64,000 nucleotides of DNA from Candidatus Bathyarchaeota archaeon (GCA_043826455.1 JBDRQD010000039.1:923-64922); one strand, 5' to 3'; numbered from the stretch's first letter, positions 4,789-60,963 are shown. Notes: generated from the letters alone by a model not told the origin. A program made the numbers and translations.

Positions 4789-5637
4789 ATGAAGTTCTAC
4801 CTCACGGGACTCGGAAACCTATACGAGAACCTGGACGAGATAAAGAGGTCAGTGATAGAGGCCGATAAGCTAGGCTTCGACGGCGCCCTCATGCCCGACC
4901 ACTACATGTGGGGCTCAGAGATCGGTCACACCATGAAGGACCCCTACAGCACCATGGAGACGTGGACGACCCTGACGTACCTGGCCGGCAAGACGGACCG
5001 GATCAGCCTCGGCACCCTTGTGACTCCGCTGCCCTTCAGGCACCCGGGGGTGCTGGCCAAGAGGCTCGCCACCCTGGACATCCTGTCAGGCGGTAGGGTC
5101 GTCCTGGGGGTGGGCGCAGGGTGGAGCAGGGTGGAGTTCGATGGCTACAGTAGGTGGCTGGAGACGGGGCCCAGGGTGGATGCAACGGTGGAGGCCTTGG
5201 AGGTCATGCGGCGTCTCTGGACCGAGCCCGAGGTGTCCTTCAAAGGCGAGTACTATGAGGTGAAGGGCGCCGTGCTGGACCCCAAGCCGCTTCAGAAGCC
5301 TTACCCCAGGCTGCTCTTCGGGAGCCAGGGCAGACGGATGCTACAGCTGACGGGCAGGTACGGGGACATATGCTTCATCCCGCCTTGGGCCGCAGCCAAG
5401 CAGACGGAGATCAAGGACACGGTGCTGGAGGCTGCGGAGGAGGACGGCAGGATAAACAAAGTGGCCTTCATGGGCGGCCTCATGGGGGCAGCGGGGCCGT
5501 ACAGCTCAGGAGAGTACGCTCGGCTGGCGGAGGCCCAGGAGAAGGCCGGGTCCACCTACTGTGCGGTGGCGTTCCCCTGGGGATCAGCTGATGCCATGAG
5601 GAGGTTCGCCGAGGAAGTCATGCCCAGCTACAGGTAG
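4789..5637 (+). CDS. Luciferase-like (LLM class) flavin/F420-dependent oxidoreductase
   Basis: Family-typical N-terminus (FDGALMPDHY...), GRVVLGVGAGW motif. Confidence 0.8.
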   Translation: MKFYLTGLGNLYENLDEIKRSVIEADKLGFDGALMPDHYMWGSEIGHTMKDPYSTMETWTTLTYLAGKTDRISLGTLVTPLPFRHPGVLAKRLATLDILSGGRVVLGVGAGWSRVEFDGYSRWLETGPRVDATVEALEVMRRLWTEPEVSFKGEYYEVKGAVLDPKPLQKPYPRLLFGSQGRRMLQLTGRYGDICFIPPWAAAKQTEIKDTVLEAAEEDGRINKVAFMGGLMGAAGPYSSGEYARLAEAQEKAGSTYCAVAFPWGSADAMRRFAEEVMPSYR

Positions 5638-5642
5638 CGGAG

Positions 5643-6386
5643 TCACGTCTCCCAGTCTCTCTCATCCATCTTCTCTATGAAATCCACCAGCAGGCCGACC
5701 AGCGCGTCGTTCATGAGCCTCCCCTTCTCAGGGGTAGCCTTACTGGGGTCACCCGTGGCTCCGTAGGGGGTGAGTTCGTCGAAGGTCCACTTCACCTCCA
5801 CGTGGCTGGGCAGGTCGGGGACAACCCCCCTGGCTCGGGTCATGTCCACGAGGCCGGGGTCCACCCTGAGCATCATGCTGGTCTCGCCCTCGCCGCCGTG
5901 GCCCAGGCCACCCCAAACCTCAAAGGTGCCCTTGGGGACCAGCTGGCCCGCGGCCACCCACCAGGCCTCCAGGACGGCCACCTTGAACTCGGGGTGGGCT
6001 GTCCTGTACTCGCGGGTGGCGGCGTCTATGGCCGGGATGTTGCCGTCGTGGCCGTTGACTATGAGGAGCCTGTTGAGGCCGTGCTTCCGGAGGCTGTCGA
6101 ACACGTCCCTCAGTACGTGCATAAGCGTCTCCGTGCTCAGGCTTATGGCCAGGGGGAAGCTGCTGTAGTGGGCGCTCATGCCGAGGGGGATGGTGGGCAG
6201 CATGAGGAGACCCTCGGTCCTCTTGACCACCTCCCTTGCGAGGTGCTCAGCCACCAGGGTGTCAGTACCGTAGGGCAGGTGGTCACCGTGGTACTCGGTG
6301 GAGCCCACGGCGAGCACCGCCTTGTTGTATCCGCCAGCCTTGTACTCGTGGCCCAGGAGCCGCAGCAGAGGTTTACCTTCCTTCAT
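5643..6386 (-). CDS. Creatininase-family amidohydrolase
   Basis: GSTEYHGDHLPYGTDT and NGHDGN motifs of the creatininase / ArfB-like family. Confidence 0.8.
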   Translation of the reverse strand: MKEGKPLLRLLGHEYKAGGYNKAVLAVGSTEYHGDHLPYGTDTLVAEHLAREVVKRTEGLLMLPTIPLGMSAHYSSFPLAISLSTETLMHVLRDVFDSLRKHGLNRLLIVNGHDGNIPAIDAATREYRTAHPEFKVAVLEAWWVAAGQLVPKGTFEVWGGLGHGGEGETSMMLRVDPGLVDMTRARGVVPDLPSHVEVKWTFDELTPYGATGDPSKATPEKGRLMNDALVGLLVDFIEKMDERDWET

Positions 6387-6448
6387 GGTACTGTTGTTGT
6401 TGATAGCGGGTTAATACGGTTACGCCCTAGCCCGGTGATACCATAAAC

Positions 6449-7288
6449 TTGTATGCTGGGACGCGGAGAATTGCTGTGATCGACTTGTCTGGACCCGTTG
6501 AAGGCTATATGGAAGTAGGCAAGTACAGGTTCCACCACCTCCGCTGGGGCGAGAAGGGAAACAGCGTGGTGCTGCTCCACAGCATGGGGGTGGACGCCTA
6601 CAGCATGGACCTGCTGGCCGGGTCCTTGGCGGCCACCCACAGGGTGCTGGCCCTCACCATCCTGGGCCACGGAGACTCCACGGTCCCCACGGAGCCGGTG
6701 TCGCTGCCGGACCACGCCGAGCTCCTGTTCACCTGCATGCGGAAGCTGGGGTACACCCCCTGCGTCCTGGTGGGCCACAGCGTCGGGGGCAGGCTCAGCA
6801 TGATCCTGTCATCGGAGCACCCCGCGGACGTCAAGGGTGTGGTTCTGGTAGACATAGCTCCGCCGGACCCGACGCCGAGACCCTATACCATGCAGACCCC
6901 AGCGTCCTTCAAGGACCGGGCGGAGGCCGAGGCCTACCTGAGGCAGAGGTACACCCGGTTCAAGGAGCACTACTTGATGAACAGGCTCAGGCACGGGTTC
7001 GTGGAGAGGCAGGACGGGTCCCTGGTGCCTAAGCCCACGGGTAACGAGTTCATGAGGGACATGTCCACGGACCTGTGGCCCTACGTGGAGAGGATGAGGG
7101 CGCCGACGCTGCTGGTGCTGGGATCGGAGAGCACCCTTGTGACCCCGGAAAAGCACGCCAGGATGAAGAAGAGTATACCCGTTTTCGAGTCCCTGACGGT
7201 GGAGGGGGCCACCCACATGGTGCCCCAGGACAAGCCCGACGAGTTCGAGGCCGCCGTCCGGGGCTTCCTGAACAGGAACAGATGGTAG
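6449..7288 (+). CDS. Alpha/beta-fold hydrolase
   Basis: HSMG...GHSVGG nucleophile elbow, C-terminal GATHMVPQDKP. Confidence 0.8.
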   Translation: MYAGTRRIAVIDLSGPVEGYMEVGKYRFHHLRWGEKGNSVVLLHSMGVDAYSMDLLAGSLAATHRVLALTILGHGDSTVPTEPVSLPDHAELLFTCMRKLGYTPCVLVGHSVGGRLSMILSSEHPADVKGVVLVDIAPPDPTPRPYTMQTPASFKDRAEAEAYLRQRYTRFKEHYLMNRLRHGFVERQDGSLVPKPTGNEFMRDMSTDLWPYVERMRAPTLLVLGSESTLVTPEKHARMKKSIPVFESLTVEGATHMVPQDKPDEFEAAVRGFLNRNRW

Positions 7289-7297
7289 CCCGGCGCC

Positions 7298-8194
7298 CTA
7301 GCTGCCGGCACCGGTCAGGCTCTTCACTTCCTCCAGCGCCTTCACGGCCACCTCTATCATGTCCGGGTCGGGCTCCTTGGTTGTGAGGCGCTGGAACAGG
7401 AGGCCGGGGGCCATCAACGCCTTCACTACAGCTGAGTTCCTGTGCTTATCGCTCAGCTTCAGCAGCTCGTAGCTAACCGACGCTATCACGGGTATCAGCA
7501 TGAGCCTGTAGGCTAGGCGCATCCAGTAGGTGCTCTGGGGGATCAAGGCGAAGAGGGCTATACTGGTGACCACCGTCAGGAAGAGGAAGCTGGTTCCGCA
7601 CCTGGGATTAAGCCTCGGGTACCCGGCCACGGTCTCGGTGTCCAGTGGGGCCCCGGCCTCGTGGGCGTTGATGGCCTTGTGCTCGGCCCCGTGGTACTGG
7701 AGGACCCTGGCCACCTCCCCCCACCTGGAGATGAGGAAGAGGTACAGGATGAACATGGTGAGCCTTAGGGCGGACTCGACGACGTTGAACAGGATGCCTG
7801 TGATGCCCAGGAGGCCTGTGAGGACGTATGGTATGGCTATGAAGGCTCCGTTGAGGGCCACCAGCATCACCACCAGTATCAGGTAGTCGGTGACTGTGAA
7901 GGAATCGTCCTCCTCCTCCAGGGCCAGGTTGGCGCTGTGCATCATGCTCTTGACGCCGAAGTACATGGTCTCGAAGAGGGTGACGATCCCCCGGATGAAG
8001 GGTAGGCCCAGTATGGGGTGCCTGGTCCTGGACTTGACTGTCAGGGTGCTGGTGTTGATGCTGCTGTCGGGCTGCCTGACGCACATCACCATGTGTGACC
8101 CGCTGCGCATCATCACTCCCTCTATGAGTGCCTGGCCGCCGAAGGCCAGGGACTCTTCGCCTGGCTTCATGCCGATACTCAACGCGGAACGCAA
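7298..8194 (-). CDS. DUF1385 membrane protein
   Basis: YHGAEHKAINAHE motif and TM segments. Confidence 0.75.
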   Translation of the reverse strand: MRSALSIGMKPGEESLAFGGQALIEGVMMRSGSHMVMCVRQPDSSINTSTLTVKSRTRHPILGLPFIRGIVTLFETMYFGVKSMMHSANLALEEEDDSFTVTDYLILVVMLVALNGAFIAIPYVLTGLLGITGILFNVVESALRLTMFILYLFLISRWGEVARVLQYHGAEHKAINAHEAGAPLDTETVAGYPRLNPRCGTSFLFLTVVTSIALFALIPQSTYWMRLAYRLMLIPVIASVSYELLKLSDKHRNSAVVKALMAPGLLFQRLTTKEPDPDMIEVAVKALEEVKSLTGAGS

Positions 8195-8218
8195 TAAAAA
8201 CCAATGGATCAGGACAGG

Positions 8219-8920
8219 CTACTCTAAGACGCGGGCCAGCTCCGACAGGTCTTTGATGGTGCGTTCTGGTTTGAGCGGGTGGCTGGGCCTTTCCCTTTCA
8301 TCCCTGTTCACCCAAACGGCTCTGAGGCCGGCGCCCAGAGCTCCCACTATGTCCTTCATGTAGTTGTCTCCGATGTACGTGACCTGGCGAGCCTTGGCCT
8401 TAACCCGGATGAGCAGCTCCTCAAATATCTCTCTACTGGGCTTGGAGTAGCCCACTTCACCCGATATTACCACGTGTTCGAAGCAGCCATCCAGACCAAG
8501 GGCGCGTATCTTCTGCCGCTGGAGGTCGCTGGGGCCGTTGCTCAGGAGGCTGATCCTGTATTTTTCTCTTAGACTCTCCAAGGCTTGGGGCGCCTCAGGG
8601 TAGTAGGCGAAGAGGCGGCTCATGGTCGACCAGTGGGCCGCGCTCAGCTCCGCGGCCAGGCCACGATCCTCTACACCGAGCACCTTGAGGGTGTCCGTTA
8701 TCTGCATGAGCCTTATCTCCTTCTCTCCGAGGCCTCTACTAATCACCAGGTCCACATACCTCTCCTCGTAGGCCTGATACTGCGTGTCGAAGGCCTGGGC
8801 CGCCCTGGAGGGCTCGAAGCCCCAAGAAATTATGCGATTGACGACCTCTCGGCAGGCGGCCTCCTCAGCTGTGGCCGAGTTGCAGAGGGTGCCATCCAGA
8901 TCAAAGCAGAGGATCAGCAA
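8219..8920 (-). CDS. HAD-superfamily hydrolase
   Basis: N-terminal FDLDGTL motif, SNGP, and GDN..KD near the C-terminus. Confidence 0.8.
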   Translation of the reverse strand: MLILCFDLDGTLCNSATAEEAACREVVNRIISWGFEPSRAAQAFDTQYQAYEERYVDLVISRGLGEKEIRLMQITDTLKVLGVEDRGLAAELSAAHWSTMSRLFAYYPEAPQALESLREKYRISLLSNGPSDLQRQKIRALGLDGCFEHVVISGEVGYSKPSREIFEELLIRVKAKARQVTYIGDNYMKDIVGALGAGLRAVWVNRDERERPSHPLKPERTIKDLSELARVLE

Positions 8921-9022
8921 GGTTACCCCAGATTATGTGTCTGCCCTGTTATCGGTTTCGGTGGCAGAGACACTGATAATCCCCGTTTAAGGGTATGAAA
9001 ATGGTGTAGGGTGGGTCCGCCG

Positions 9023-9229
9023 CTAGACGCCTTCGACCATCTTGTCTATGAGCTCTATGGCCTGGGTGATGTTCTCTCGGGCCATCACCAGGAGGGACCG
9101 TATTATCTTGGTCTTGTTCTTCATGGTCTCTATGTCTCGTTTGCAGACCTGTAGCAGGTTGTCCATGTCCTTGAGGTCCTCTATGAGGATCATCTCCTCG
9201 GGTTTCTTCTCATTGTTGCCTACAGCCAT
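9023..9229 (-). CDS. Small hypothetical coiled-coil protein (68 aa)
   Basis: ORF only. Charged helical sequence with no recognisable family. Confidence 0.4.
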   Translation of the reverse strand: MAVGNNEKKPEEMILIEDLKDMDNLLQVCKRDIETMKNKTKIIRSLLVMARENITQAIELIDKMVEGV

Positions 9230-9353
9230 TCTGGGTCACGGTATGTATATTGGTGATGTGAGGATAAGATTATGGATTATACACAGTTCATTGCTTCCAT
9301 TTATCTCTGTTCGCCAAACCGATTGGTGCGAGCGGTAAGCATTTTGAGCTTTA

Positions 9354-9388
9354 GGATAATGAGAGGATAATGAGAGGCTAATGATGAG
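9354..9388. repeat. 11-bp tandem repeat x3 (GGATAATGAGA GGATAATGAGA GGCTAATGATGAG)
   Basis: Read directly, in the intergenic region between two minus-strand genes. Confidence 0.8.
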
Positions 9389-9397
9389 CTATGGCTC

Positions 9398-9877
9398 CTA
9401 GAGTCGCTGCCCCAGCTCCTCCGCCCACCGCCTCACCTTCTCCGGGTCCGTGGTGTCGACGGCGGTCTTGCCCAGGACCCTTATCCTGCCGCCGAAGCCC
9501 TCCACCGCCACCAGGTTCAGGTCGTCGTGCTTCTCCTTGATGGGGTTCATGTACTTCCTCACCGCGTCAGGGTAGCTTTCCTCGGTCCCCGCCTCGTTGG
9601 AGGATAGGAAGACGGCCACCGGCTTGCCCCCGAAGTCGTTCCTCAGATACTCTAGGCCTCTGCGGTAGACACGTTGCGCCCGGACCCCGGACCCCACCAC
9701 GAAGAAATCATACATCTGGGGGTCAGGCTTCTTTCCCTGCCTGATGTCCACTAGTTCCACATTGTGGCCGTACTTCTCCCGCAGGGTCTCCGCTACGATC
9801 TCTGCGTACTCCTTGGTGACTCCGCCGGAAGTCATGTAGGCTATGAGGGTTCTCTTCTCTCCGTCCAATTCAAGCAC
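9398..9877 (-). CDS. Flavodoxin-domain protein
   Basis: 159 aa, flavodoxin-like alpha/beta pattern (LIAYMTSGGVTKEYAE..., FFVVGSGV). Confidence 0.65.
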   Translation of the reverse strand: MLELDGEKRTLIAYMTSGGVTKEYAEIVAETLREKYGHNVELVDIRQGKKPDPQMYDFFVVGSGVRAQRVYRRGLEYLRNDFGGKPVAVFLSSNEAGTEESYPDAVRKYMNPIKEKHDDLNLVAVEGFGGRIRVLGKTAVDTTDPEKVRRWAEELGQRL

Positions 9878-10005
9878 CTGCTAGGTCTACACTGTGCGCC
9901 GGCTACATAAAAGTACATGATTAAGGTCCAGCCCCTAGGTTGACTTGCCAGCTTGCGACCGCGTCCATCCTAGGTTTTAATAATTCATGGACCCCAAAAC
10001 ACTGT

Positions 10006-10998
10006 ATGACCGCCGATAAAAAATTGGGTGAGCCCATGAACGCAGTCGACGCTGCCAGAACCGCCCTCATCGTCACCAAGGGTGCGACGGTGGGCGAGAG
10101 TATGATCGTTTTCTGCGACCCGGAGAAGCGTGAGCTCGGCGAGATGTTCGCCGACGCTGGCATCGGTCTCGGCCTCTGGACCCGGCTCGTCATCCTGGAA
10201 GCCGGGGAGGAGGCCCGGAAGAAGCTGGACGAGCGCACCAAGGAGGTTCTAACCTCCAGCAAGCCCGACCTCATGGTCAACGTGTTCAGGAGCAGGGACG
10301 AGGAGACCACGTACCGCATCCAGTTCATGAGGATCGAGAGGCGCAAGACTGACAGGATCATCCACTGCCCAGGCATCACCATGGACATGTTCACCGAGGG
10401 GGCCGCCGCCCTCACCGAGGAGGGGTACGAGGAGATGTTCGCCTTCGGCAACAGGCTGAAGGACGCTTTGAAGGGCACCCACAAGGTGCACGTCACGTGC
10501 CCACGGGGCTCAGACTTCACCCTGGACCTGGGTGGCAAGGAGTTCCAGGTGGAGCAGGGCACCAACATACCCACGGGGGAGATCAACGTCATGCCCCCCA
10601 TAGGCGACAGCTTCCAGGGCAAACTGGTATCCACATCCGGGGGCACAGGCAAGCTGTACACCGAGACACCCGCAGAGATACACTCCAAAGACGGCCTCGC
10701 CGGAGAGGTCAAGTGCAAGAGCAGGCATGTCCGTGACAGGATTCTGGTGGAGCTGGACAGGGACCCGGGGGCCAGGTACCTGGGGGAGTTCGCCATAGGC
10801 ATCAATTCCAAGGCTAGGATAGTTGACGCCTTCATAGAGGCCGAGAAGGTCGTCGGCACAATACACGTGGCCTTCGGCGGAAGCTACAGGCCCTCCAAGA
10901 CCCACCTGGACCTCCTCATCGAGAACCCTACGGTCACAGCGTACAGGAGCGACGGGTCAGGGTTCACGGTGATGGATCGGGGCCAGATCAAGGTATAG
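10006..10998 (+). CDS. M29-type (AmpS/PepS-like) aminopeptidase
   Basis: GEFAIGIN...EKVVGTIHVAFG C-terminal signature. TTTTAATAATT box lies about 25 nt upstream of ATG 10006. Confidence 0.7.
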   Translation: MTADKKLGEPMNAVDAARTALIVTKGATVGESMIVFCDPEKRELGEMFADAGIGLGLWTRLVILEAGEEARKKLDERTKEVLTSSKPDLMVNVFRSRDEETTYRIQFMRIERRKTDRIIHCPGITMDMFTEGAAALTEEGYEEMFAFGNRLKDALKGTHKVHVTCPRGSDFTLDLGGKEFQVEQGTNIPTGEINVMPPIGDSFQGKLVSTSGGTGKLYTETPAEIHSKDGLAGEVKCKSRHVRDRILVELDRDPGARYLGEFAIGINSKARIVDAFIEAEKVVGTIHVAFGGSYRPSKTHLDLLIENPTVTAYRSDGSGFTVMDRGQIKV

Positions 10999-11040
10999 CG
11001 GCTCGGGGCTGTATTTCACCTCACATTTTTTTATCGTATC

Positions 11041-11092
11041 GAGGGGAAGATTTGAACTACCGACCTTTGGGTCATGAGCCTCACGGGCTACC
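11041..11092 (-). pseudogene. Decayed partial copy of tRNA-iMet (anticodon arm to 3' acceptor only)
   Basis: The reverse complement GGTAGCCCGTGAGGCTCATGACCCAAAGGTCGGTAGTTCAAATCTTCCCCTC aligns to the 3' two-thirds of the intact tRNA at 11920-11997. The stems now have mismatches and the 5' part is absent. Confidence 0.6.
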
Positions 11093-11203
11093 TTACTTTT
11101 TTTAATATATCGATCCTAGAGAGGATGGCCCACTGAACCTCTTTTCATGATGCCTCTCAGCGCCGCGACAACATTATAATGCAAGAAGTCGAGGCTTACA
11201 ACG

Positions 11204-11677
11204 ATGAAGGCTCTAGTGATATACGACACCTTCTTCGGCAACACAGAGCAGGTGGCCCGCGCCATCAGCGACTCCCTGGGGGCGGAGAGCACCGCGATCC
11301 GCGTGGCCGACGCGAACCACGGGCAACTTGACGGCCTGGGCCTCCTGGTGGTGGGCTCACCCACGAGGGCGTTCAGGCCCACGAAGCCCATCAGCCAGTT
11401 CCTGGACAGGATCCCCCGGGACACCCTCAAGGGCATCAGCGTAGCCGCCTTCGACACCAGGATGTCCGAGGCCGAGCTAAACTCACCCTTGCTGGGCATA
11501 ATAGTAAAGCTATTCGGCTACGCGTCCAAGCCCATATCAGACAAACTTGTGAGGAAGGGAGGGGAGCAGGCAGCTCCCCCCGAAGGCTTCATCGTCGAAG
11601 GAACAGAAGGCCCGCTGAGGGACGGCGAACTCGAACGGGCCTGGGCCTGGGCCAAGCAGATCACCGAGACTCGGTGA
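11204..11677 (+). CDS. Flavodoxin
   Basis: MKALVIYDTFFGNTEQVA N-terminus and VVGSPT motif. Confidence 0.8.
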   Translation: MKALVIYDTFFGNTEQVARAISDSLGAESTAIRVADANHGQLDGLGLLVVGSPTRAFRPTKPISQFLDRIPRDTLKGISVAAFDTRMSEAELNSPLLGIIVKLFGYASKPISDKLVRKGGEQAAPPEGFIVEGTEGPLRDGELERAWAWAKQITETR

Positions 11678-11919
11678 CAGATCATAAACCTCTCACCCCC
11701 ATCCCCACCCCCTGCCTAACAGCCGCCTCAACAGCGCAGCCCCGAAAAACCACCCCCCATGATAACAAGACAAACAACGAGTACGGCGGACACCGCCGAC
11801 CACCACCACCGCCAACGAACCCCGAAAAAGCCCCCGATCAACAAAACAAGCCAGAACAATGTGAATCGTGGTGGCGGCGGTGGGACCCCCCCTCCCCCCC
11901 ACATGCACGCACAAACAAT
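11678..11919 (+). repeat. A+C-rich intergenic element, copy A
   Basis: Aligns by eye at roughly 80% over ~135 nt to the reverse complement of 60731-60875, and more loosely to 50190-50330. Confidence 0.7.
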
Positions 11920-11997
11920 TGGTAGCGGGGGGTAGATTTGAACTACCGACCTTGGGGTTATGAGCCCCACGGGCTAACCTGGCTGCCCTACCCCGCT
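11920..11997 (-). tRNA. Initiator tRNA-Met (CAT), CCA encoded
   Basis: Reverse complement AGCGGGGTAGGGCAGCCAGGTTAGCCCGTGGGGCTCATAACCCCAAGGTCGGTAGTTCAAATCTACCCCCCGCTACCA. It has A1:U72 and three G:C pairs closing the anticodon stem. Confidence 0.9.
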
Positions 11998-12059
11998 TCC
12001 TCTCAGATCACAACCCTATAGTCTTATAAACCTTCCAGTACCCCCCACAAACTGAAAAC

Positions 12060-12371
12060 ATGCCCCGCCCCAACACCAGACGCATCGCAGAACAACGCAT
12101 AGAGACCCTCTACCACAAGGCAAAGGAAACATACACCGTCAACCCGAACCTCAGCCGCAGATACACCCAGCTCCTCAGACGCATAGCCCAGCGCACCCGC
12201 ACCAAGCTACCCACACACATCAGACGAGGCATATGCAGAGGCTGCGGCACCGTCCTCATCCAGGGCCTCAACAGCCACACCAGGCTCAGGCAGCGCCGGG
12301 AACCCCACATAGCCACCACCTGCCACCTCTGCGGCCACACCCACAGAATACCCATGAGAGACCCACCGTGA
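12060..12371 (+). CDS. rnp4: RNase P protein component 4 (Rpp21/RNP4)
   Basis: Basic N-terminus plus zinc ribbon CRGCGTVLIQGLNSHTRLR...TCHLCGH. Confidence 0.8.
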   Translation: MPRPNTRRIAEQRIETLYHKAKETYTVNPNLSRRYTQLLRRIAQRTRTKLPTHIRRGICRGCGTVLIQGLNSHTRLRQRREPHIATTCHLCGHTHRIPMRDPP

Positions 12372-13396
12372 CCCTCACCCTCATCAGCGTCGGCCTCAGC
12401 AGCCACCTAGACCTCTCCCTCCGCGCCCTAGAAGCCGCCAAAGACGCCCACCACGTCTACGCCGAGACATACACCATGAAACTGGACACAACGATACAGG
12501 CACTCCAGGAAACCCTAGGCAGACCCGTCACACCCCTGGCCCGGGGAGGCCTGGAGGAAGAGGCACCCAGACTCCTGGAGGCCGCCGAGAACTCCAACGT
12601 CGCCATCCTGGTGGGCGGAGACGCCCTCGCCGCCACCACCCACATGAGCCTGCTAGTGGACGCAGCCAAGCGAAGCATCCCCGTCAGGGTGATCCACGGA
12701 AGCAGCGTCTTCACCGCCATAGCAGAGACAGGCCTAAGCCTATACAAGTTCGGCCGAACCGTCACGGTGCCCCTGCCCGAGAAGGGCCCCGTGGACACCG
12801 TCCTCAGGACCCTCAAGGAGAACGTGGAGCACGGCCTCCACACCCTCCTGCTCCTGGATCTGGACATCCCCGCGGACAGGTACCTCACCGTACCCGAGGC
12901 CATCACACGGCTGGAGGCGACCGGGGAGTTCCCCATGGACACCCTCATGGTGGCCGCAGCCAGGCTGGGCTCCAACACCCAACTCGTCCGGGCCGACACG
13001 GCCATGAAACTCAGAGACACCGACTGTGGGGACCCACCATACGCTCTGGTCGTTCCCGGTCAACTCCATTTCTTAGAGGAGGAGGCCTTGCAGGTGGTAG
13101 CGGGCTGCCCCCCCCGCCTACTGGAGGGCAGAAGGGTGCAGGGGGAGGTGGACCGTCTCGTGGAGAAGTACGCCACGGGGTGCCGGAGGGTGCTGGAAGC
13201 CCTTAAGGTGGCTGAGCTGCCAGCCGAGGTGACGGAAGAAGCGGTCGCCGGCCTCCTAGACCACGTGAGGCGCTACCTGGAGGACGCAGAGTACTACCGC
13301 GCGGACCAGAAGCCTGTGGCTCTCACCAGCGTCGCCTACGCCGAGGGCATCTTGGACGCCTTAAAGCTTTTAGGCATAGCCGACTTCCAGTGGTGA
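12368..13396 (+). CDS. dphB: Diphthine synthase with ~75-85 aa C-terminal extension
   Basis: Tetrapyrrole-methylase fold (LTLISVGL..., VAILVGGDALAATTH, YKFGRTVT). The GTG start overlaps the rnp4 TGA (GTGA). Confidence 0.85.
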   Translation: MTLTLISVGLSSHLDLSLRALEAAKDAHHVYAETYTMKLDTTIQALQETLGRPVTPLARGGLEEEAPRLLEAAENSNVAILVGGDALAATTHMSLLVDAAKRSIPVRVIHGSSVFTAIAETGLSLYKFGRTVTVPLPEKGPVDTVLRTLKENVEHGLHTLLLLDLDIPADRYLTVPEAITRLEATGEFPMDTLMVAAARLGSNTQLVRADTAMKLRDTDCGDPPYALVVPGQLHFLEEEALQVVAGCPPRLLEGRRVQGEVDRLVEKYATGCRRVLEALKVAELPAEVTEEAVAGLLDHVRRYLEDAEYYRADQKPVALTSVAYAEGILDALKLLGIADFQW

Positions 13397-21759: not shown

Positions 21760-22869
21760 TCATTCTAGGCTTAATGCCTTTTCCAATCCCTCCTCGGGGT
21801 ACCTGAACGTGAGAAGCCTCTCCTCGGGTAAAGCGGCGTAAACCTTGTCCCCCGCGGCGAAGCCCGCAGCGTCGCCTCTAACCGCGGCCTTGGATAGGAA
21901 CACCTCGCCGTTGGAGGCCCTCAGCTCGTACCTGAAGTGGTCCCCGACGAAGGAGGCGGACGTGACGGTGCACTCCCAGGTGTTTCCGCCTGCAGGGTCA
22001 TTGACGAGCTCGACGAACTCGGGGCGGATCGCCAGCACGCATCGTTCGCCCTCCTTCAGAGGCGTCTCCTCCCTGACCGCGGCCATGATGGTGGAGCCGT
22101 TAACGGCCACCTCGGCGACGTGGTCAGTATACTTCTTCACAGTACCCGTGAAGAAGTTGGCTTCCCCCAGGAACTTGGCAGTAAACAGCTCACGAGGGTT
22201 GAGGTACATCTCCTGGGGCGGACCCACCTCGACGATCCTGCCGGCCTTCATCACGACTATCCTGTCGGATATGGAAAGCGCCTCCTCCTGGTCGTGTGTG
22301 ACGTGGATGGCGGTGAGGCCCAGGTCCTTGACCAGCTTCCTGAGCTCGTACCTCAGGGACGTACGGACCTTGAGGTCCAGGGCGCCCAAGGGCTCGTCCA
22401 GCAGGAGGAGAGTTGACCCTGAGACCAGGGCCCTCGATATGGCTGTCTTCTGCCTGGCCCCGCCGCTCAGCTCCCGGGGGTACAGCGTCGCGAAGCCGTC
22501 CAGGCCCATCATGTAGAGCATCTCTTCCACGGGGCTCTCCCTCTCCCTGGGAGTAGCCCCCTTCACCATCAAGCCGTATGACACGTTGTCGTAGGAGTTC
22601 ATGTGGGGGAACAGGGCGATTTCCTGGAAGACGTACCCGACGCCCCTCTCCTCTATGGGCAGCGCCTTGGCCGCTTCCCCGTCTATGTAGACTTCCCCTG
22701 CGTCGGGCTTCACGATGCCGGCTATGGTCTTGATGAGGGTGGTCTTGCCGCACCCGCTGGGGCCGACGACGCACAAGTACTCGCCTGCGTTGGCCGTGAG
22801 AGAGACATCCTGAAGAGCTCTGACGGCCCCATAGGCCTTCGCGGCCTCCTCGACGCGTACCTCAGGCAC
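21760..22869 (-). CDS. ABC transporter ATPase (PotA/MalK-like with C-terminal TOBE-like domain)
   Basis: Walker A GPSGCGKTT, signature LSGGARQ, Walker B LLLDEP. GTG start. Confidence 0.9.
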   Translation of the reverse strand: MPEVRVEEAAKAYGAVRALQDVSLTANAGEYLCVVGPSGCGKTTLIKTIAGIVKPDAGEVYIDGEAAKALPIEERGVGYVFQEIALFPHMNSYDNVSYGLMVKGATPRERESPVEEMLYMMGLDGFATLYPRELSGGARQKTAISRALVSGSTLLLLDEPLGALDLKVRTSLRYELRKLVKDLGLTAIHVTHDQEEALSISDRIVVMKAGRIVEVGPPQEMYLNPRELFTAKFLGEANFFTGTVKKYTDHVAEVAVNGSTIMAAVREETPLKEGERCVLAIRPEFVELVNDPAGGNTWECTVTSASFVGDHFRYELRASNGEVFLSKAAVRGDAAGFAAGDKVYAALPEERLLTFRYPEEGLEKALSLE

Positions 22870-23979
22870 CTAGTACACCTCCAGTTCCCTCTGAAGCCCT
22901 ATGGTGGGGGACTCGTAGACGTGGGTGTGCACTGGGTTGAAGCTCACGCTCACCCAGTCTCCCACCGCCACAGCCTTCACCGGCGAGCCTATGGGCACCC
23001 TGGCAGCCACCTGGTCCCCGTTTGCGAGCCTCACCGTGTAGCGCGTCCACTCCCCAAGGAAATGGATAGCCTCGACCTCCCCGGAGAACCTGTTCTCCTT
23101 GCCGTCGCGGGCCCTAGGGCGTATGCTCAGCTTCTCCTCCCTGACGGCCACCACCACTGGCTCCTCAGGCTCAAAGCTCACGTCGGCGACGTTGACCCTG
23201 AGGTTCTCCCTGAGCCTTATCACGCTGCCTATGATTTCCCTGTTCTCCACTATGCCCTCCAGGAAGTTGGAGTTGCCCACGAAGTTGGCCACGAATATGT
23301 TCCCGGGCCTGTTATAGACGTGGAAGGGTGTGCTGTGCTGCTGGAGCTTGCCGTGGCGGAGGACGAGTATCCTGTCCCCTATGGTCATGGCTTCCTCCTG
23401 GTCGTGGGTCACGTGGATGACGGTGAGCCCGGACTCCTTTGCCAACCGTCTGAGCTCGGTCCTCAGCTCCAGCCGGAGCCTGACATCCAGGGCGCCCAGG
23501 GGCTCGTCCAGGAGCAGCGTTTTGGACCCTGAGGCGAGGCCCCTCGCCAGGGCGACGCGCTGCTGCATGCCGCCGCTGAGCTCGTTGGGGTAGGCGTCAG
23601 CCCTCGCGTCCAGCCTCACCATCCTCAGAATACTGAGGGCGGCCTCCTCCGCCTCGGGTTTGGGCACGTCCTTGGAGAGAGGGCCGTAGGCCACGTTCTC
23701 CAGGACGGTGAGGTGAGGGAACAAGGCGTAGGTCTGGGGAACATAGACGGCGTCCCTCTCCTCAGCCGGGATGTCGCTCACATCCACGCCGCCGAAAAGT
23801 ATCTCGCCCTCCGTGGGCTGAATGATTCCGGAGATGAGCCTGAGAAGCGTCGTCTTTCCGCTGCCGGTGGAGCCGAGAACGCACAGGTATTCGCCGTCCC
23901 TGACCTCGAAGGAGACGTCGTCCACGGCCTTCAGGGACCTGAACCGCTTCGTGAGGTTCCTGACGCTGATGGACGGCAC
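22870..23979 (-). CDS. ABC transporter ATPase, second paralogue
   Basis: GSTGSGKTT, LSGGMQQ, LLLDEP. GTG 23979 is preceded by GGAGGGG. Confidence 0.9.
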   Translation of the reverse strand: MPSISVRNLTKRFRSLKAVDDVSFEVRDGEYLCVLGSTGSGKTTLLRLISGIIQPTEGEILFGGVDVSDIPAEERDAVYVPQTYALFPHLTVLENVAYGPLSKDVPKPEAEEAALSILRMVRLDARADAYPNELSGGMQQRVALARGLASGSKTLLLDEPLGALDVRLRLELRTELRRLAKESGLTVIHVTHDQEEAMTIGDRILVLRHGKLQQHSTPFHVYNRPGNIFVANFVGNSNFLEGIVENREIIGSVIRLRENLRVNVADVSFEPEEPVVVAVREEKLSIRPRARDGKENRFSGEVEAIHFLGEWTRYTVRLANGDQVAARVPIGSPVKAVAVGDWVSVSFNPVHTHVYESPTIGLQRELEVY

Positions 23980-33594: not shown

Positions 33595-33672
33595 GGGCTC
33601 GTAGTCTAGCCAGGATAGGATTCTGGCCTGCGGAGCCGGAGGTCGTGGGTTCGAATCCCACCGAGCCCGCCA
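33595..33672 (+). tRNA. tRNA-Arg (GCG), CCA encoded
   Basis: GGGCTCGTAGTCTAGCCAGGATAGGATTCTGGCCTGCGGAGCCGGAGGTCGTGGGTTCGAATCCCACCGAGCCCGCCA folds as a cloverleaf with anticodon loop CTGCGGA. Confidence 0.9.
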
Positions 33673-34089: not shown

Positions 34090-34425
34090 AACCGTGTTTT
34101 CTGGGCTCCAGAGTCAAAGAGGAAGCACCTCAACGAGTAAAAGCATGAGGCAAAAGATGGAATTTTTTTCCGCCTTATCCCGGCTGGCACGGGATAAGCC
34201 ACCTAACTAACGATATGCCCCTCGCACCAGCACCACAGCCCCAGAGAGGGGGGAGGGGGTAGAGCAAAATGAACCTGAAACAGGTGCCCCAGGCCAAAAG
34301 GAGGCTGGGAAACACGCCTTTGCCGTCCTATTCTATGCAGAAACGCCGTCCATTCCATACAGAGACACGGTCATTTCAGCGCATCAGGCACGGTACTGAT
34401 GTGCAAAAAAAGTAGGGGGTATCGT
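34090..34425 (+). repeat. Inverted-repeat partner L (~340 bp)
   Basis: Aligns by eye at roughly 70-75%, with indels, to the reverse complement of 43055-43410. Confidence 0.65.
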
Positions 34426-43054: not shown

Positions 43055-43410
43055 AATGATACCCCCCTACGTTTTTTCACATCAGGCTCTCCATCACGCC
43101 TTGCTTTATGTGTTGAATGGGCCGCGTTTTTGTATGGAATGGATAGCGTTTTTGCGTAGATTGGGATCGAAAAGGCGGGTTTCCTGGCCTCCTTTTGGCG
43201 TGGGGCGGCCGTTTCCGGTTTTTCTTGCTCTACCCCCCTCCCCCCTCTCTGGGGCTGTGGTGCTGGCGTGGTGAGTGTAACGTTTTCCGGGAGTGGCTTA
43301 TCCCATGCCGGACGGGATAAGGCGGAAAAAAAATCCATCTTATATTACATGTTTTTGCTTCGGTGAGGCTCCTCCTCATCCTCGGCTCAGGAGCTCAGGA
43401 AAACACTGTT
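43055..43410 (-). repeat. Inverted-repeat partner R (~355 bp)
   Basis: The reverse complement aligns to 34090-34425, including the CCGCCTTATCCCG...GGGATAAGCC hairpin and CAGCACCACAGCCCCAGAGAGGGGGGAGGGGG. Confidence 0.65.
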
Positions 43411-49441: not shown

Positions 49442-50005
49442 ATGGTCGCTCAGCCTAATCTTGAGACTGAAAGACTGATCCTGAGACCATTCAAGCCAAG
49501 CGACGCAGAACAAGTACAGAGACTAGCCGGATCAGAAGAGGTAGCCGAGACCACGAACCTACCCCACCCCTACACCGTGGAGATGGCAGAGGAATGGATC
49601 AAGACCCACGAACCGGCGTACAGGATGGGCTGAGGAGCCGCCTATGCCATCACGCTGAAGAACACCGGCGAACTCATCGGAGCGATCAGCCTCATGGACA
49701 TCACCCAGCCCAGCAACCACGCCCGCATCGGGTTCTGGGTGGGCGTACCCTACTGGAACAAGGGGTACTGCACGGAGGCCGGGAAAGCCGTCCTGGAGTA
49801 CGGCTTCCAAGTGAGACACCTCAACCGCATCCACACAGGCTACATGATCAGCAACCACGCCTCAGGCCGCGTACTGGAGAAGCTCGGCATGGTGTACGAG
49901 GGAACCCAGAGACAGCACATCACCCGACTAGGAAAACACGAAGACCTGATCCTCGTGGGACTACTGAGATCAGAGTGGATCAAAAACCAGGACAAGGCAC
50001 CGTGA
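49442..50005 (+). pseudogene. GNAT (RimJ/RimL-like) N-acetyltransferase interrupted by an in-frame TGA at 49631-49633
   Basis: Track ORFs 49442..49633 and 49694..50005 are in the same frame. The read-through sequence is ...HEPAYRMG*GAAYAITLKNTGELIGAISL... Confidence 0.7.
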
Positions 50006-50332
50006 CGCGGGCCCCCCACATTCTGCCGAGAACCGGCAACACCCACTGACCCATCAAAAAAGGCTCAATGCATCCACTGCCCACCCCTCCGCCACCATAC
50101 ACCAACCCCGAACAAACATTAACCAAATCCACGAACAACCAAACAAGAAAAAACCCAAAACAAAACAGAAAAACAAACCCACACCCCAACCCACGACAGA
50201 CACCACCACAAACCGCCACCATAAAACAACCCCAAAAAACACCCGAACACCAAAACAAACCAAAAAACAGCAAACCATGACAACGACGACAATCCCCCCG
50301 GGGGGGTATGCACACACACAACAAAACAAAGG
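50006..50332 (+). repeat. A+C-rich intergenic element, copy C (most extreme)
   Basis: 50101-50280 contain only 10 G and 5 T in 180 nt by hand count. The 3' end aligns to copy A (…ATGCACRCACAACAA followed by a tRNA 3' end). Confidence 0.6.
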
Positions 50333-50415
50333 TGCGGGGGGAGGGATTCGAACCCTCGAAAGCCTAAGCTATAGGATCTTGAGTCCCACCCCTTTGGCCA
50401 CTTGGGAACCCCCGC
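50333..50415 (-). tRNA. tRNA-Leu (CAA) with long variable arm
   Basis: Reverse complement GCGGGGGTTCCCAAGTGGCCAAAGGGGTGGGACTCAAGATCCTATAGCTTAGGCTTTCGAGGGTTCGAATCCCTCCCCCCGCA. Confidence 0.9.
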
Positions 50416-50493
50416 CCAGAACAAAACAAACACCACCAACATAAAACCGTTCCCCACAAACCCAAATACCACAACAACCAAACCCATACCAAG

Positions 50494-51195
50494 ATGAGGA
50501 CCACCATAAGCCTCGGCGGCAGCCTACTCACCGGCGACAAAAACGACCCCACACTCACCCTAACCCCCAAACCCTACCGAGCCTACGCCACAGTCCTAAG
50601 GCAGCTCCACGACCTCGGCCACCAGATCATGGTTGTATGCGGAGGAGGAAAACCCGCACGCCACTACATCCAGGTAGCCAAAAACCTGGGCGCGTCACGA
50701 TCCATCCAGGACATGCTGGGCGTCAAGGCCACCCACATAAACGCCCTCCTCCTCACAGCCGCCCTAGGCGACACAGCCGACCAGACCAGAATATACACCC
50801 GGGCAACGGAGCTAAGATACCGCCAACCCGACAAGATATGGGTGGGCGGAGGCTATAAGCCCAAAAGCAGCACCGACTACCGGGCCATCCTCCTCGCCCG
50901 CGCCCTCGGCTCAGACGCCGTCATCAACGCCACCGACGTCCCAGGCGTCTACGACTCCAACCCCCACACCAACCCCAAAGCCAGAAAGCTCGACACGGCA
51001 ACCCACGCCCAGCTAGAGAGAATCATCAAAGAAAGCACCAGGCAGGCCCCAGGCGAGTACGGCCTCTTCGACCTCAAAGCAGTCAAACTAGCCGCCAGGA
51101 TCAACATGCCCCTCATCTTCATAGACGGCAGAGACCCCGAGGAGCTGAGACGAGCCGTCGAAGGCGGCCACAGCGGCACAGTAGTGAAGACTTAG
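50494..51195 (+). CDS. pyrH: UMP kinase (archaeal type)
   Basis: ISLGGSLL...VVCGGGKPARHY...GGYKPKSSTD pattern, 233 aa. Confidence 0.9.
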   Translation: MRTTISLGGSLLTGDKNDPTLTLTPKPYRAYATVLRQLHDLGHQIMVVCGGGKPARHYIQVAKNLGASRSIQDMLGVKATHINALLLTAALGDTADQTRIYTRATELRYRQPDKIWVGGGYKPKSSTDYRAILLARALGSDAVINATDVPGVYDSNPHTNPKARKLDTATHAQLERIIKESTRQAPGEYGLFDLKAVKLAARINMPLIFIDGRDPEELRRAVEGGHSGTVVKT

Positions 51196-51234
51196 CCCTC
51201 TCATGTTTTAATCCCTGAAAACCAACAATAACCC

Positions 51235-52692
51235 ATGACAGGTCACAGAGTAGTCATCGGCTCGATAGCCCACGAGACCAACACCTTCAGCACCGTAAAG
51301 CTCAGACTACCCGACTTCAACCCCCTCTACGGAGACGACATCACCAAAGTCCTCAAAGGCACCAGAAGCGGCATAGGCGGCTTCATAGACGTCCTCGAAA
51401 AAGAGGGCGTAGAAATGGTCTTCACCATATCAGCCCACGCCACCCCCGCTGGCCCAGTCAACCACACAGACTACAGGCGCATGGTGGACACCATCTTAGA
51501 AGGCGTCAAAGATGAGAAGGTGGACGGGGTCCTCCTAGCCCTCCACGGAGCCATGGTCGCCGAGAACGTACCGGAGGCCGAGGGCGTCCTCCTAGAAGAA
51601 GTACGCAAACAAGTAGGCAAGAAGCCCATCATCATCACCCTGGACCTCCACGGACTAATCTCCACCAAGATCATAGACAACTGCGACGCCGTCTACGGCT
51701 ACGACACCAACCCCCACATAGACATGTACGAGCGAGGCGTCGAAGCCGCCGAGACCATGGTAAAAACCCTCAGAGGCGAACTCAAACCCGTCGTCGCCCA
51801 CAAGAAGCTACGAATGCTGCCCCCGACGATCAACCAGAGAACCACCGAGGGCCCCATGGTGGAGCTCCTTAAAGAAGCACGGAAGATGGAGAAGAAGCCG
51901 GGCGTCCTCAACGTATGCATCTTCCCCGCCTTCCCTTACGCCGACGTGCAGCGCGCAGGCTCAGCAGTGGTGGCGGTCACCGACGGCGACAAGAAGCTGG
52001 CTCAGAGCCTCTGCGACCAGCTGGGCGAGAAGATGTACGCCATGCGCCAGCAGTTCCTGAAGCAACTCACACCCATAAAGGAAGCAGTGAAACGAGCCGT
52101 CGATGCACCGGAGAGACCTATAGTGTTGGCTGACGTGGCGGACAACCCAGGCGGAGGAGCCCCAGGGGACGGCACAGAGATACTCCGGGAGCTCATGAGG
52201 GTGAAGGCTAAGAGCGTGAGCGTCGCCATCATCAAGGATCCCGAGGCGGTAGCCGAGGCCATAAAAGTCGGCGTCAAGGGCACCCTCCGAATGCCCATCG
52301 GGGCTAAGACGGACACCTTCCACGGCAAACCCGTTAAGGTGGAGGGCACGGTGCGCACCATCACGGACGGCAGGTTCATCCACAAGGCCATGGCCGTGGG
52401 CGTTCCCGCCGACGTGGGCCGGACAGCCGTCATCGACGTGGACGGCATAGAGATCATCCTCACCGAGAAGAGCCACGCCCCCAACGACCCAGAGATATAC
52501 AGGCGCAACGGCATCGAGCCCACCGACAAGAAGATACTGGTGCTGAAGAGCCGCGGCCACTTCAGGGCAGCCTACGAGCCCTTCAGTAAGGAGATCATAG
52601 AGGTGGACGCCCCAGGCCTCACTTCCCCCAACCTGAGCTGGTTCAAGTATACCAACATACCGCGCCCCATCTGGCCCTTCGACCCAGTCTAG
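51235..52692 (+). CDS. MlrC-like (M81) metallopeptidase
   Basis: N-terminal IGSIAHETNTFS and family-typical length (485 aa). Confidence 0.8.
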   Translation: MTGHRVVIGSIAHETNTFSTVKLRLPDFNPLYGDDITKVLKGTRSGIGGFIDVLEKEGVEMVFTISAHATPAGPVNHTDYRRMVDTILEGVKDEKVDGVLLALHGAMVAENVPEAEGVLLEEVRKQVGKKPIIITLDLHGLISTKIIDNCDAVYGYDTNPHIDMYERGVEAAETMVKTLRGELKPVVAHKKLRMLPPTINQRTTEGPMVELLKEARKMEKKPGVLNVCIFPAFPYADVQRAGSAVVAVTDGDKKLAQSLCDQLGEKMYAMRQQFLKQLTPIKEAVKRAVDAPERPIVLADVADNPGGGAPGDGTEILRELMRVKAKSVSVAIIKDPEAVAEAIKVGVKGTLRMPIGAKTDTFHGKPVKVEGTVRTITDGRFIHKAMAVGVPADVGRTAVIDVDGIEIILTEKSHAPNDPEIYRRNGIEPTDKKILVLKSRGHFRAAYEPFSKEIIEVDAPGLTSPNLSWFKYTNIPRPIWPFDPV

Positions 52693-60691: not shown

Positions 60692-60963
60692 GGATTGATG
60701 ATGGTGGGTTTTGTGTTTAAAGACATTGGGGTGGTTTGTGTGTGTGCACGTGGGGGGGGGGGAGGGGGGGTCCCATCACCGCCACCGCGGTTCCCGGTTT
60801 TCAGGCTTGTTTACTTGATCGGAGGCTTTTTCAGGGTTTCTAGGCGGTGGTGGTGGTGGGTGATGTCCGCCGCGGGGCGTCAGTTGTTCAACAATGGCTT
60901 GACTGCTGTGTGGAAGCGTGTGATTTGAGGCGGGGCTGTTTTTCTGGAAGCTGTCAAGGCTGA
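60692..60963 (-). repeat. A+C-rich intergenic element, copy B (inverted; G+T-rich as read on the + strand)
   Basis: The reverse complement of 60731-60875 aligns to 11781-11915. Weaker similarity extends across the whole intergenic region. Confidence 0.65.

Follow-up and report, generated by a model that had tools for sequence, protein, structure and literature searches.

The window analysed here, a 64,000-nt stretch of DNA from a Candidatus Bathyarchaeota archaeon, contains three copies of a short intergenic element, referred to as A, B and C. The core of copy A (positions 11781–11919, plus strand) was read directly and was recovered by repeat search, nhmmer and global alignment. It is preceded by a decayed 5' module at 11700–11780 on the same strand, which was recognized from the repeat family and by comparison with full-length copies and whose boundaries are approximate. 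The 3' end of copy A abuts, with no spacer, the 3' end of a tRNA-Met(CAT) gene on the opposite strand (11920–11997, minus strand). Copy C, a decayed copy at 50190–50330 (plus strand; nhmmer and global alignment), ends in the same way at the 3' end of tRNA-Leu(CAA) (50331–50415, minus strand), both tRNA genes being identified by ARAGORN and Rfam. Copy B lies on the minus strand and consists of the 5' module plus the core (60734–60945; full-length HMM, E = 2.3e-49), the core having been located at 60731–60875 (minus strand) by repeat search and nhmmer. It fills the spacer from the stop of an MFS gene (60964) to the TTTAAA promoter of a FAH-family gene. Re-reading of the window confirmed the positions and sequences that the original prediction had given for the three copies.

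Copies A and B formed a 134-nt pair with 81 % identity in the repeat search (81–83 % overall, with 114 of 137 positions identical in the global alignment), and each matched the other in nhmmer searches corrected for composition bias (E = 4.8e-19 and 3.2e-18). Copy C gave weak nhmmer matches (E = 0.008 versus A and 0.035 versus B). A and B were nevertheless its top matches in the 64-kb window and these matches were collinear. Its global alignment score of 62 compared with 19.7 ± 5.6 for shuffled sequences (z = 7.6; none of 2000 shuffles reached 62) and with 15–26 for neighbouring segments that are equally A+C-rich, which served as the control for this copy. Copy C is thus a more diverged relative, as had been proposed; its A+C content is 0.85 and its arms have been eroded mainly by G>A changes (GGCGGCGG to GACAACGACGA). 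The similarity among the three copies is therefore real. A low-complexity artefact, against which the original prediction had cautioned, was ruled out by the bias-corrected searches, by the shuffles and by the failure of the A+C-rich neighbours to align.

The core of the element is ~130 nt long and full-length copies span ~200–270 nt. On the A/C-rich strand, the family core consists of a GC-rich segment (GCGGCGGACA), a CCA/CCG triplet arm, a conserved A-rich middle (CTAAGAACCCTGAAAAAGCCTCCGATCAATAAAACAAGCCTGAAAACGGGGAACCG), a GGC/GGT triplet arm, a C6–7 T C6–7 tract and the motif CACGTGCACGCAC. The corresponding order in copy A is a GGCGG..CCGCC hairpin, a (CCA/CCG)n arm, the A-rich middle GAAAAAGCC.CCGATCAA..AAACAAGCC, a (GGT/GGC)n arm, a C7TC7 tract and CACATGCACGCAC. 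Many copies carry a 5' module of ~70 nt, (T)TTAGCTAAATGCAACCCGAAAAAA..CACATTCTTCC.CGCAGCTGTCAGC, which in full-length copies includes a TATA-like palindrome (TTTAGCTAAA) ~24 nt before a conserved CACATTC. The module is present in B and decayed in A, where CAGCCCCGAAAAACCACC..CATGATAAC corresponds to GCAACCCGAAAAA..CACATTC.. of the full-length copies, and the TATA-like palindrome is absent from the window copies. The sequence AACCCNGAAAAA occurs twice per full-length copy, its second repeat lying at 11723–11749 in copy A, and a 3' module, ATACCCAACCACTAGGTACAAACCCCCGAAACCCAAG, is common to three copies. No terminal inverted repeats were found, in agreement with the first reading of the window: in the family alignments the 5' end (TTTAGCTAAATGCAACCC... 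or GCGGCGGACA...) was not complementary to the 3' end (...CACGTGCACGCACA). G6AG7 or shorter G runs were present in most copies. A canonical G-quadruplex motif, with four runs of at least three G and short loops on one strand, was not conserved, being found in only five of the 21 copies (A, B, L006, L004 and L024; L-numbers are labels of the related loci or contigs compared here). On the G/T-rich strand a T5 run was present in 21 of 21 copies and was followed in most by a T4 run, although an A5/T5 run formed part of both patterns used to search for copies and the invariance of T5 is biased accordingly.

The complementary arms, which lie ~65 nt apart in copies that are solitary, could form a stem, and the arm pair CCACCGCC/GGCGGTGG did fold in A and B and was lost in C. 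RNAalifold produced no consensus long-range helix from the family alignment. The arm helix in its two registers was 74 % and 68 % paired, compared with 72 % and 66 % in shuffles, and the inner helix 75.6 % compared with 73.9 %. Column slides of ±3 were as good as the true register for the arm helix, indicating that the pairing stems from the triplet-repeat composition. In a register-free test, cognate arms paired better than non-cognate arms on the A/C strand (p = 0.005) and on the G/T strand (p = 0.001; mean –24.1 versus –19.5 kcal/mol), and arm variants in L005 and L037 were still able to pair. Only on the G/T strand was the helix kept in every copy, by means of G.U pairs; because deamination-type change keeps G/T-strand pairing automatically, this retention is not evidence of selection. 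Of the stem suggested originally, the complementarity of the triplet repeats is therefore real, but covariation did not rise above shuffles, and of the pairing tests only the cognate-arm comparison was positive. A conserved RNA structure was not supported by RNAalifold, nor did the pair counts of three helices exceed shuffles.

The element had been described as a three-copy family; the family is real, but it is larger than three copies and is present in several genomes at ~18 independent loci. A 21-base pattern from the conserved middle was searched in one genome per species and, after confirmation by nhmmer (E = 1e-17 to 5e-35), gave five contigs with copies. Three of these belong to a single Bathyarchaeia MAG, CAZAKG01, and include a contig on which two copies lie. 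Another belongs to the Bathyarchaeia MAG DASWLJ01, and the fifth is labelled Desulfaltia and is probably mis-binned. A second pattern, consisting of the positions invariant in the eight copies then known, was searched in metagenome contigs and gave 15 more copies, also confirmed by nhmmer. The tally stands at six copies in Bathyarchaeia MAG contigs and 15 in metagenome contigs, comprising 21 distinct sequences whose invariant core positions are partly a product of the search patterns. Beyond the window, 19 distinct copies were obtained from Bathyarchaeia MAGs and metagenome contigs by the pattern scans and nhmmer. More than one copy per locus was found on L002 (two), on L053 (two) and in the 64-kb window (three). 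Homologues of the flanking FAH-family and diphthine-synthase proteins were annotated as Bathyarchaeota, RBG_13_60_20 being the closest named.

At gathering threshold, the only Rfam matches in the whole window were three tRNAs, and at E ≤ 1 four loci with six copies matched only tRNAs, with one further chance match on a tRNA. A known RNA family was rejected on this basis. Searches with the family copies gave no match in IMG/VR or in phage or plasmid collections, so that a viral or plasmid origin was likewise rejected; 13 IMG/VR matches to a short 17-base pattern were due to chance. The element therefore does not belong to a repeat or ncRNA family already annotated in these collections. Copies A, B and C are members of a lineage-specific (Bathyarchaeia), non-coding, strand-oriented family of interspersed repeats that was previously undescribed.

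Every copy found lay in a spacer, which extends to the whole family the intergenic position noted for the window copies, and three types of context were distinguished. At seven independent loci the start of a co-oriented gene was situated 40–330 nt 3' of the element (B, L049/L056, L004, L002a, L033/L052 and L024, and through the tRNA in A and C). At four independent loci the 3' end of the element faced the 3' end of a tRNA gene (tRNA-Met, tRNA-Leu-CAA twice and tRNA-Leu-GAG), with spacers of 0, 0, 135 and ~26 nt; the arrangement in L053 is orthologous to that of copy C and tRNA-Leu. At three to five further loci the element faced the 3' end of a convergent protein gene. A copy thus either occupies a spacer immediately before a promoter or points with its 3' end at that of a tRNA or convergent gene. 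The adjacency to tRNA 3' ends that had been reported for A and C holds for these two copies, but it applies to only four of the ~18 independent loci in the family.

Copies were present at some orthologous spacers and absent from others, which shows that the family was gained or lost there. The MFS-FAH site is filled in the window and in L057 (94 %), whereas in L060/L061, which have the same MFS-FAH-ROK order and a FAH protein with 80 % amino acid identity to that of the window, the site is empty: the 105-nt MFS-FAH spacer contains no element and shows no similarity to it (z = –0.5). The right junction of copy B lies just before the shared CCAATG-TTTAAA promoter. A target-site duplication could not be defined, as the sole filled/empty pair (window versus L060) is too diverged for the left junction. 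A decayed element remnant in the L058 spacer was considered and was unsupported (z = –0.8). The orthologous copies of L049 and L056, and others compared in the same way, belong to genomes that are too close for purifying selection to be judged. By its presence and absence at orthologous sites, the family behaves as mobile or recombination-spread DNA. At least part of this spread would accompany integration and recombination, both at the 3' ends of tRNA genes and along the borders of foreign DNA, as inferred from the convergent tRNA geometry at four loci, the tRNA-fragment repeats around copy A and in L053 and the integrase gene at the tRNA-Met 3' end in L064 (details below).

The copies also coincided with islands of unusual base composition, defined by an A+C content of at least 0.70 per 150 nt. 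The window contained exactly three sizeable islands, each of which holds a copy. Island A (11625–12543, plus strand) covers copy A, the Rpp21 gene and the start of the diphthine synthase gene, and the tRNA-Met inside it is unaffected by the skew. Island C (49959–51367, plus strand) covers the upstream spacer, copy C, an AA-kinase-family gene and the start of an MlrC-like gene. Island B (60564–60997, minus strand) comprises copy B together with ~130 nt at the start of the FAH-family gene; it is G+T-rich on the plus strand of the window, and a weaker skew continues through the first ~400 nt of that gene. In related loci totalling 174 kb, only three islands, all of them small, did not coincide with a copy. 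In a meta-profile aligned on the element, the A+C content rose from 0.51 upstream to 0.65 over the last 100 nt ahead of the core and reached 0.70 within it; successive 100-nt bins on the 3' side then gave 0.67, 0.64, 0.64, 0.58, 0.59 and 0.60, with a return to the baseline of ~0.53 by 1.2 kb. The skew extended over 0.3–2 kb on the 3' side of the element. The copies had been said to lie upstream of, and co-oriented with, skewed genes, and the five genes of the window with the highest A+C at third positions (first 60 codons) were indeed those downstream of A, B and C. T3 was ~0.01 in these five genes and their proteins were visibly enriched in residues with A/C-only codons. Each copy therefore marks where a polar island has its upstream edge; within the island, A and C have increased on the strand of the element at the expense of G and T.

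Comparison of filled and empty sites showed the same direction of change. In the first 400 nt of the FAH-family gene, the filled site had A+C contents of 0.67/0.63/0.63/0.69 and the empty site contents of 0.52/0.52/0.49/0.61, and the shared FAH promoter was shifted likewise in composition at the filled site. When changes in the window lineage were polarized by an outgroup, there were seven G>A versus one A>G and three to four T>C versus no C>T; for transversions, the counts were 5–8 G>C versus 3–4 C>G and 3–6 T>A versus 0–1 A>T. The copies themselves have drifted in a similar manner, with rates per consensus base of 12.2 % for G>A versus 7.2 % for A>G and of 12.0 % for T>C versus 7.9 % for C>T, and copy C represents the extreme of the same drift.

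Convergent genes on the 3' side of the element (L006, L047 and L002b) had a G+T3 of 0.85–0.88 and a T3 of 0.28–0.47 in their last 40 codons, the G+T3 decaying to ~0.5 over 250–300 codons. For comparison, the G+T3 of 53 window genes had a mean of 0.45 (sd 0.10, maximum 0.62), and ordinary convergent pairs showed no G+T3 effect (0.46 versus 0.45, p = 0.52). As the convergent genes carry the skew on their antisense strand, the skew follows the strand of the element and not the sense of the mRNA, and selection for A+C-rich mRNA or for codon bias was rejected as the sole cause. Read-through transcription in general was also rejected, because ordinary convergent pairs were unaffected. The island affects spacers, promoters, synonymous sites and amino acid composition whatever the orientation of the genes; the skew is a DNA-strand substitution bias tied to the element. 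Both the family and its strand-specific islands are solidly established.

The element may cause the skew, although most loci were found by searching for the element and the association between the two is inflated as a result. Rpp21 beside tRNA-Met was A+C-rich in L064–L066, where no copy was detectable. L058 had an A+C-rich spacer and an intermediate skew with no recognizable element remnant, and the Dph5-centred control loci (L063–L066) contained nine element-free islands in all. It is possible that the element and the skew both mark the same kind of site, or that the skew outlives the element. The sharp upstream edge, the one-sided decay, the loss of C and A from the G/T strand and the independence of gene orientation are explained most simply by a G/T strand that is single-stranded. 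As a cause of the skew we tentatively infer that, 3' of the element, the G/T-rich strand might recurrently be left single-stranded. This could happen if a strand-specific nick were made at the element and the A/C strand then resected 5'→3', or if DNA synthesis stalled on the G/T template and left a gap. The exposed strand would gather damage of the single-stranded type (C>T, A>G and changes due to abasic-site bypass) that would later be fixed. Transversions (G>C, T>A and C>A) are among the substitutions observed, so that pure deamination is insufficient and abasic-site bypass or some selection is called for. Canonical transcription-associated mutation would have the wrong polarity if transcription ran rightward. 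Leftward transcription would fit in polarity, but promoters for it are evident for tRNAs only. A canonical G-quadruplex is not a general obstacle to synthesis, given its presence in a minority of copies, and was rejected as a general cause of the skew. A plausible side effect of the element would be termination: with its T5 and T4 runs, the G/T strand may end tRNA or convergent transcripts that run into it, in that direction only. The A/C strand has no oligo-T terminator.

We assign a probability of roughly 55 % to the reading as a whole, i.e. a mobile-type Bathyarchaeia repeat family with polar strand islands that would arise by single-strand exposure. The narrower claim that copies act in cis to trigger hypermutation of an archaeal chromosome, in one direction and on one strand, is a possibility that we would not call probable.

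A rather doubtful explanation, but the one that fares best among the alternatives, regards the copies as passive footprints left by viruses or plasmids that integrate at tRNA 3' ends. What is conserved would then be the att-adjacent part of such integrative elements that persisted after decay, and the copies away from tRNAs would be secondary integrations or rearrangements. The intact tRNA-Met and a decayed duplicate of its 3' part (11036–11090, minus strand; 89 % identity over 55 nt with 11922–11976, and 91.7 % over 48 nt) bracket an 830-bp segment comprising a flavodoxin gene and copy A, which is how the remnant of an integration event would be expected to look. L053 has a 6.5-kb island of lower GC content, the genes of which are without known relatives. 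It is bracketed by a ~250-nt repeat composed of 17 nt of the tRNA-Leu 3' end, the 135-nt spacer and the 3' two-thirds of the element. The direct repeat of a tRNA 3' end that identifies an integration (att) footprint was thus found at copy A and in L053, and none was found for copies B or C. The DNA on the 3' side of tRNA-Met was variable among relatives, with an integrase gene in L064, AT-rich DNA in L065 and an HNH/MrcB gene in L066. About half of the copies had low-GC DNA on their 5' side, and L033 and L052 had the element and everything downstream of it in common, with different DNA upstream. As an account of the family, the footprint reading is opposed by the 14 of ~18 loci with no tRNA nearby and by the absence of copies from the viral, phage and plasmid collections. 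No transposase-like or integrase gene was found beside any of the 21 copies, no integrase was present in the bracketed DNA (flavodoxin being the only gene in the copy A segment; Pfam and PHROGs for the L053 island), the L053 island had no mobile-element hallmark genes and the integrase locus of L064 at tRNA-Met had no copy of the element. The skew of host genes beyond the tRNA would also remain unexplained.

An unlikely alternative is that the G/T-rich strand is the functional one and was conserved as a 3' trailer or terminator module, with oligo-T runs and GC-rich hairpins, for ending the transcripts of tRNAs and convergent genes. As a secondary role this would be compatible with the preferred reading. 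The T runs, the tRNA or convergent-gene 3' end found 0–135 nt from the 3' end of the element in about half of the loci and the arm helix that all copies keep on the G/T strand (p = 0.001) agree with this role. However, the constancy of T5 is inflated by the two search patterns and the pairing is of the kind that deamination-type changes keep automatically, whilst the other half of the loci (B, L049, L004, L002a, L033 and L024) have no incoming gene and the tRNA-Met of relatives manages without the element.

We consider it improbable that the element is a structured ncRNA or leader with its own promoter, encoded by the A/C-rich strand in the sense of the downstream genes, in which case the island would be a transcribed region selected free of G and U for unstructured RNA. 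In its favour, the arms fold in A and B, with cognate pairs that are more stable by permutation (p = 0.005), and the variants in L005 and L037 retain pairing. Moreover, the TATA-like palindrome precedes CACATTC by ~24 nt in full-length copies, the core motifs keep G and T despite the bias and the skew spans whole co-oriented operons. The lack of an Rfam match even at E ≤ 1 and of a long-range consensus helix argues against it, as do the named helices, which were 74–76 % paired versus 72–74 % in shuffles and were equalled by slides of ±3. The window copies lack the palindrome and several decayed copies have lost the helix on the A/C strand. The mRNAs of the convergent genes are themselves rich in G and U, a pattern not explicable by selection on sense transcripts.

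It is highly improbable that the similarity is a compositional artefact of A+C-rich spacers, a reading already refuted, or that the element encodes a small protein: the sequence is of low complexity (C tracts and triplet repeats) and the frame RRLRTLKKPPINKTSLKTGNRGGGDY had no stop within the tested block in 14 of 18 copies, with third positions the most variable, but bias-corrected nhmmer E-values ranged from 1e-18 to 1e-38 and other A+C-rich segments failed to align, pN/pS was 0.51 in that frame versus 0.59 in another, no start codon was conserved, stops interrupted four of the 18 copies, stop codons are absent anyway from T-poor DNA and the translated frames had no Pfam or PHROG match. The absence of a convincing gene, noted from the outset, was thereby upheld, and a small ORF or integrase fragment was rejected (no start codon, uninformative pN/pS and no family matches).

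Should the element and the skew indeed be linked, a small selfish repeat would be reshaping neighbouring housekeeping genes, here those for the RNase P subunit Rpp21, an amino-acid-kinase-family protein and a FAH-family hydrolase, by way of a local mutation bias on one strand. For these uncultivable organisms, the islands would then offer a natural read-out of the exposed strand, and of its reach, at a defined site. Were the element a trigger of hypermutation, each landing would rewrite host promoters, codon usage and amino acid composition over up to 1–2 kb, giving a chromosomal, repeat-anchored counterpart of the mitochondrial H-strand gradient. As far as we know, no local, polar, repeat-anchored strand asymmetry has been described in archaeal or bacterial chromosomes. 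The islands distort inferences from codon usage and composition in Bathyarchaeia, including prediction of expression, detection of horizontal transfer and binning, and the element can serve directly to mark tRNA genes that are hot spots of integration.

Several known systems share features with the element. The intergenic repeats of halovirus HF2 are reportedly an example of mobile promoters, or promoter-carrying repeats. The present copies resemble them in being intergenic, in lying just upstream of and co-oriented with genes and in having a TATA-like palindrome when full-length. They differ in that the window copies are without the TATA-like motif, the promoter is putative and some copies lie between convergent genes, where a promoter would give only antisense RNA.

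With respect to the skew, kataegis provides a precedent for clustered, strand-coordinated mutation on resected single-stranded DNA. In vertebrate mitochondrial DNA, the L strand is A+C-rich and the H strand G+T-rich (PMC1794132). The islands resemble this asymmetry in that one strand loses C and A, the co-oriented sense strand is A+C-rich down to its third positions and amino acids, and a gradient runs from a fixed point. Unlike the mitochondrial case, the effect is local (0.3–2 kb), occurs at many chromosomal sites and is anchored on a repeat; the spectrum contains many transversions and single-strandedness is here postulated.

Archaeal tRNA genes carry att repeats left by integrases of the SSV and pNOB8 types. 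The element resembles such footprints at copy A and in L053, where a tRNA 3' fragment is duplicated at a distance and non-host DNA follows the intact tRNA, and the DNA 3' of tRNA-Met is a variable hot spot where one relative carries an integrase. In contrast to these footprints, most copies lie away from tRNAs and the element encodes no integrase fragment, and the L053 repeat, at ~250 nt, is far longer than a usual att core.

The interspersed intergenic repeats of prokaryotes include MITEs, Correia/NEMIS, ERIC, RUP and REP/BIME sequences. Like the MITE/Correia/ERIC/RUP/REP class, the element is short, non-coding, multi-copy, confined to spacers and lineage-specific, shows presence and absence at orthologous sites, contains GC-rich self-complementary segments and, by analogy, could bring or remove transcription signals beside genes. 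It differs in having no terminal inverted repeats, no short palindromic unit and no known partner transposase; a target duplication could not be defined. It lacks the inverted repeats of a MITE, and there is no transposase-like gene beside the 21 copies. REP/BIME sequences are imperfect palindromes of 20–40 nt that are usually clustered and alternate in orientation, whereas the unit here is 130–270 nt long and solitary. We know of no interspersed repeat family for which a strict orientation relative to a compositional island has been described. The element is accordingly a new family, which works like an interspersed repeat of the MITE, Correia and ERIC class and partly like a tRNA integration footprint.

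On the minus strand near copy A of the element, the region 11036–11090 holds a decayed tRNA-Met fragment that retains the 3' portion of the gene, from the 3' strand of the D-stem through the acceptor end, with its stems broken. This fragment, which follows ATATATTAAAAAAA and for which no ARAGORN call was obtained, shared 91.7 % identity over 48 nt with the intact tRNA-Met gene 830 bp away.

The DNA on the 3' side of tRNA-Met differed from relative to relative in three of the four Dph5-centred control loci (L064, L065 and L066). A Phage_integrase gene lay 90 nt from the tRNA in L064 (2809–3779), AT-rich DNA occupied this side in L065 (4862–5208) and an HNH/MrcB_N gene did so in L066 (4568–5598). 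On the opposite side of the tRNA, Rpp21 was A+C-rich in all three loci, and despite this no copy of the element could be detected in any of them.

Low-GC DNA was also found among the related loci that carry the element. In L053, a 6.5 kb island of lower GC content (5520–12060; 33–56 %), bracketed by repeats of approximately 250 nt, encoded two large proteins (625 and 587 aa) without known relatives, together with small helix-turn-helix proteins; no integrase was present in this island, and none of the Pfam and PHROG matches was convincing. Alternating GCGCGCGC runs (taatgcgcgcgcgattaag; tatgcgcgcgcgcagttaaaagcgcgcgcgctc) occurred in the AT-rich DNA adjoining two copies, at approximately 3470–3490 of L052 (as oriented) and approximately 11900–12000 of L053, and may represent a motif common to the foreign DNA that adjoins the element in both loci.

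Immediately upstream of copy C, an acetyltransferase gene (PF13302; 49442–50005, plus strand) borders the most skewed island. Its counterpart in an independent assembly (L001, 6206–6769) was called as two ORFs, and the gene is probably a frameshifted pseudogene.

The copy nearest to A and B (E = 5e-35) sits on L006 (DATKWY010000339.1), a contig assigned to a bacterial MAG, Candidatus Desulfaltia. L006 is likely to be a mis-binned archaeal contig.

Two further repeats were present in the window. The units of a 191 nt direct repeat (22253–22443 and 23363–23553; 74 % identity, spacing 1110 nt) lie inside or adjoin minus-strand ORFs, and the repeat is probably due to neighbouring paralogous genes. 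An inverted repeat pair, distinct from and unrelated to the element, has arms at 34136–34393 and 43099–43359 that were 77 % identical across a 146 nt stretch and 84 % identical in shorter stretches; a tRNA-Arg gene (33595–33672) is close to the first arm. The approximately 8.7 kb enclosed by this pair includes genes for eRF1 and a class-I aminoacyl-tRNA synthetase. Both arms contain a T7 run together with a CCGCCTTATCCCG...CGGGATAAGCC hairpin, and the motif GGGGGGAGGGGG occurs in each of them.
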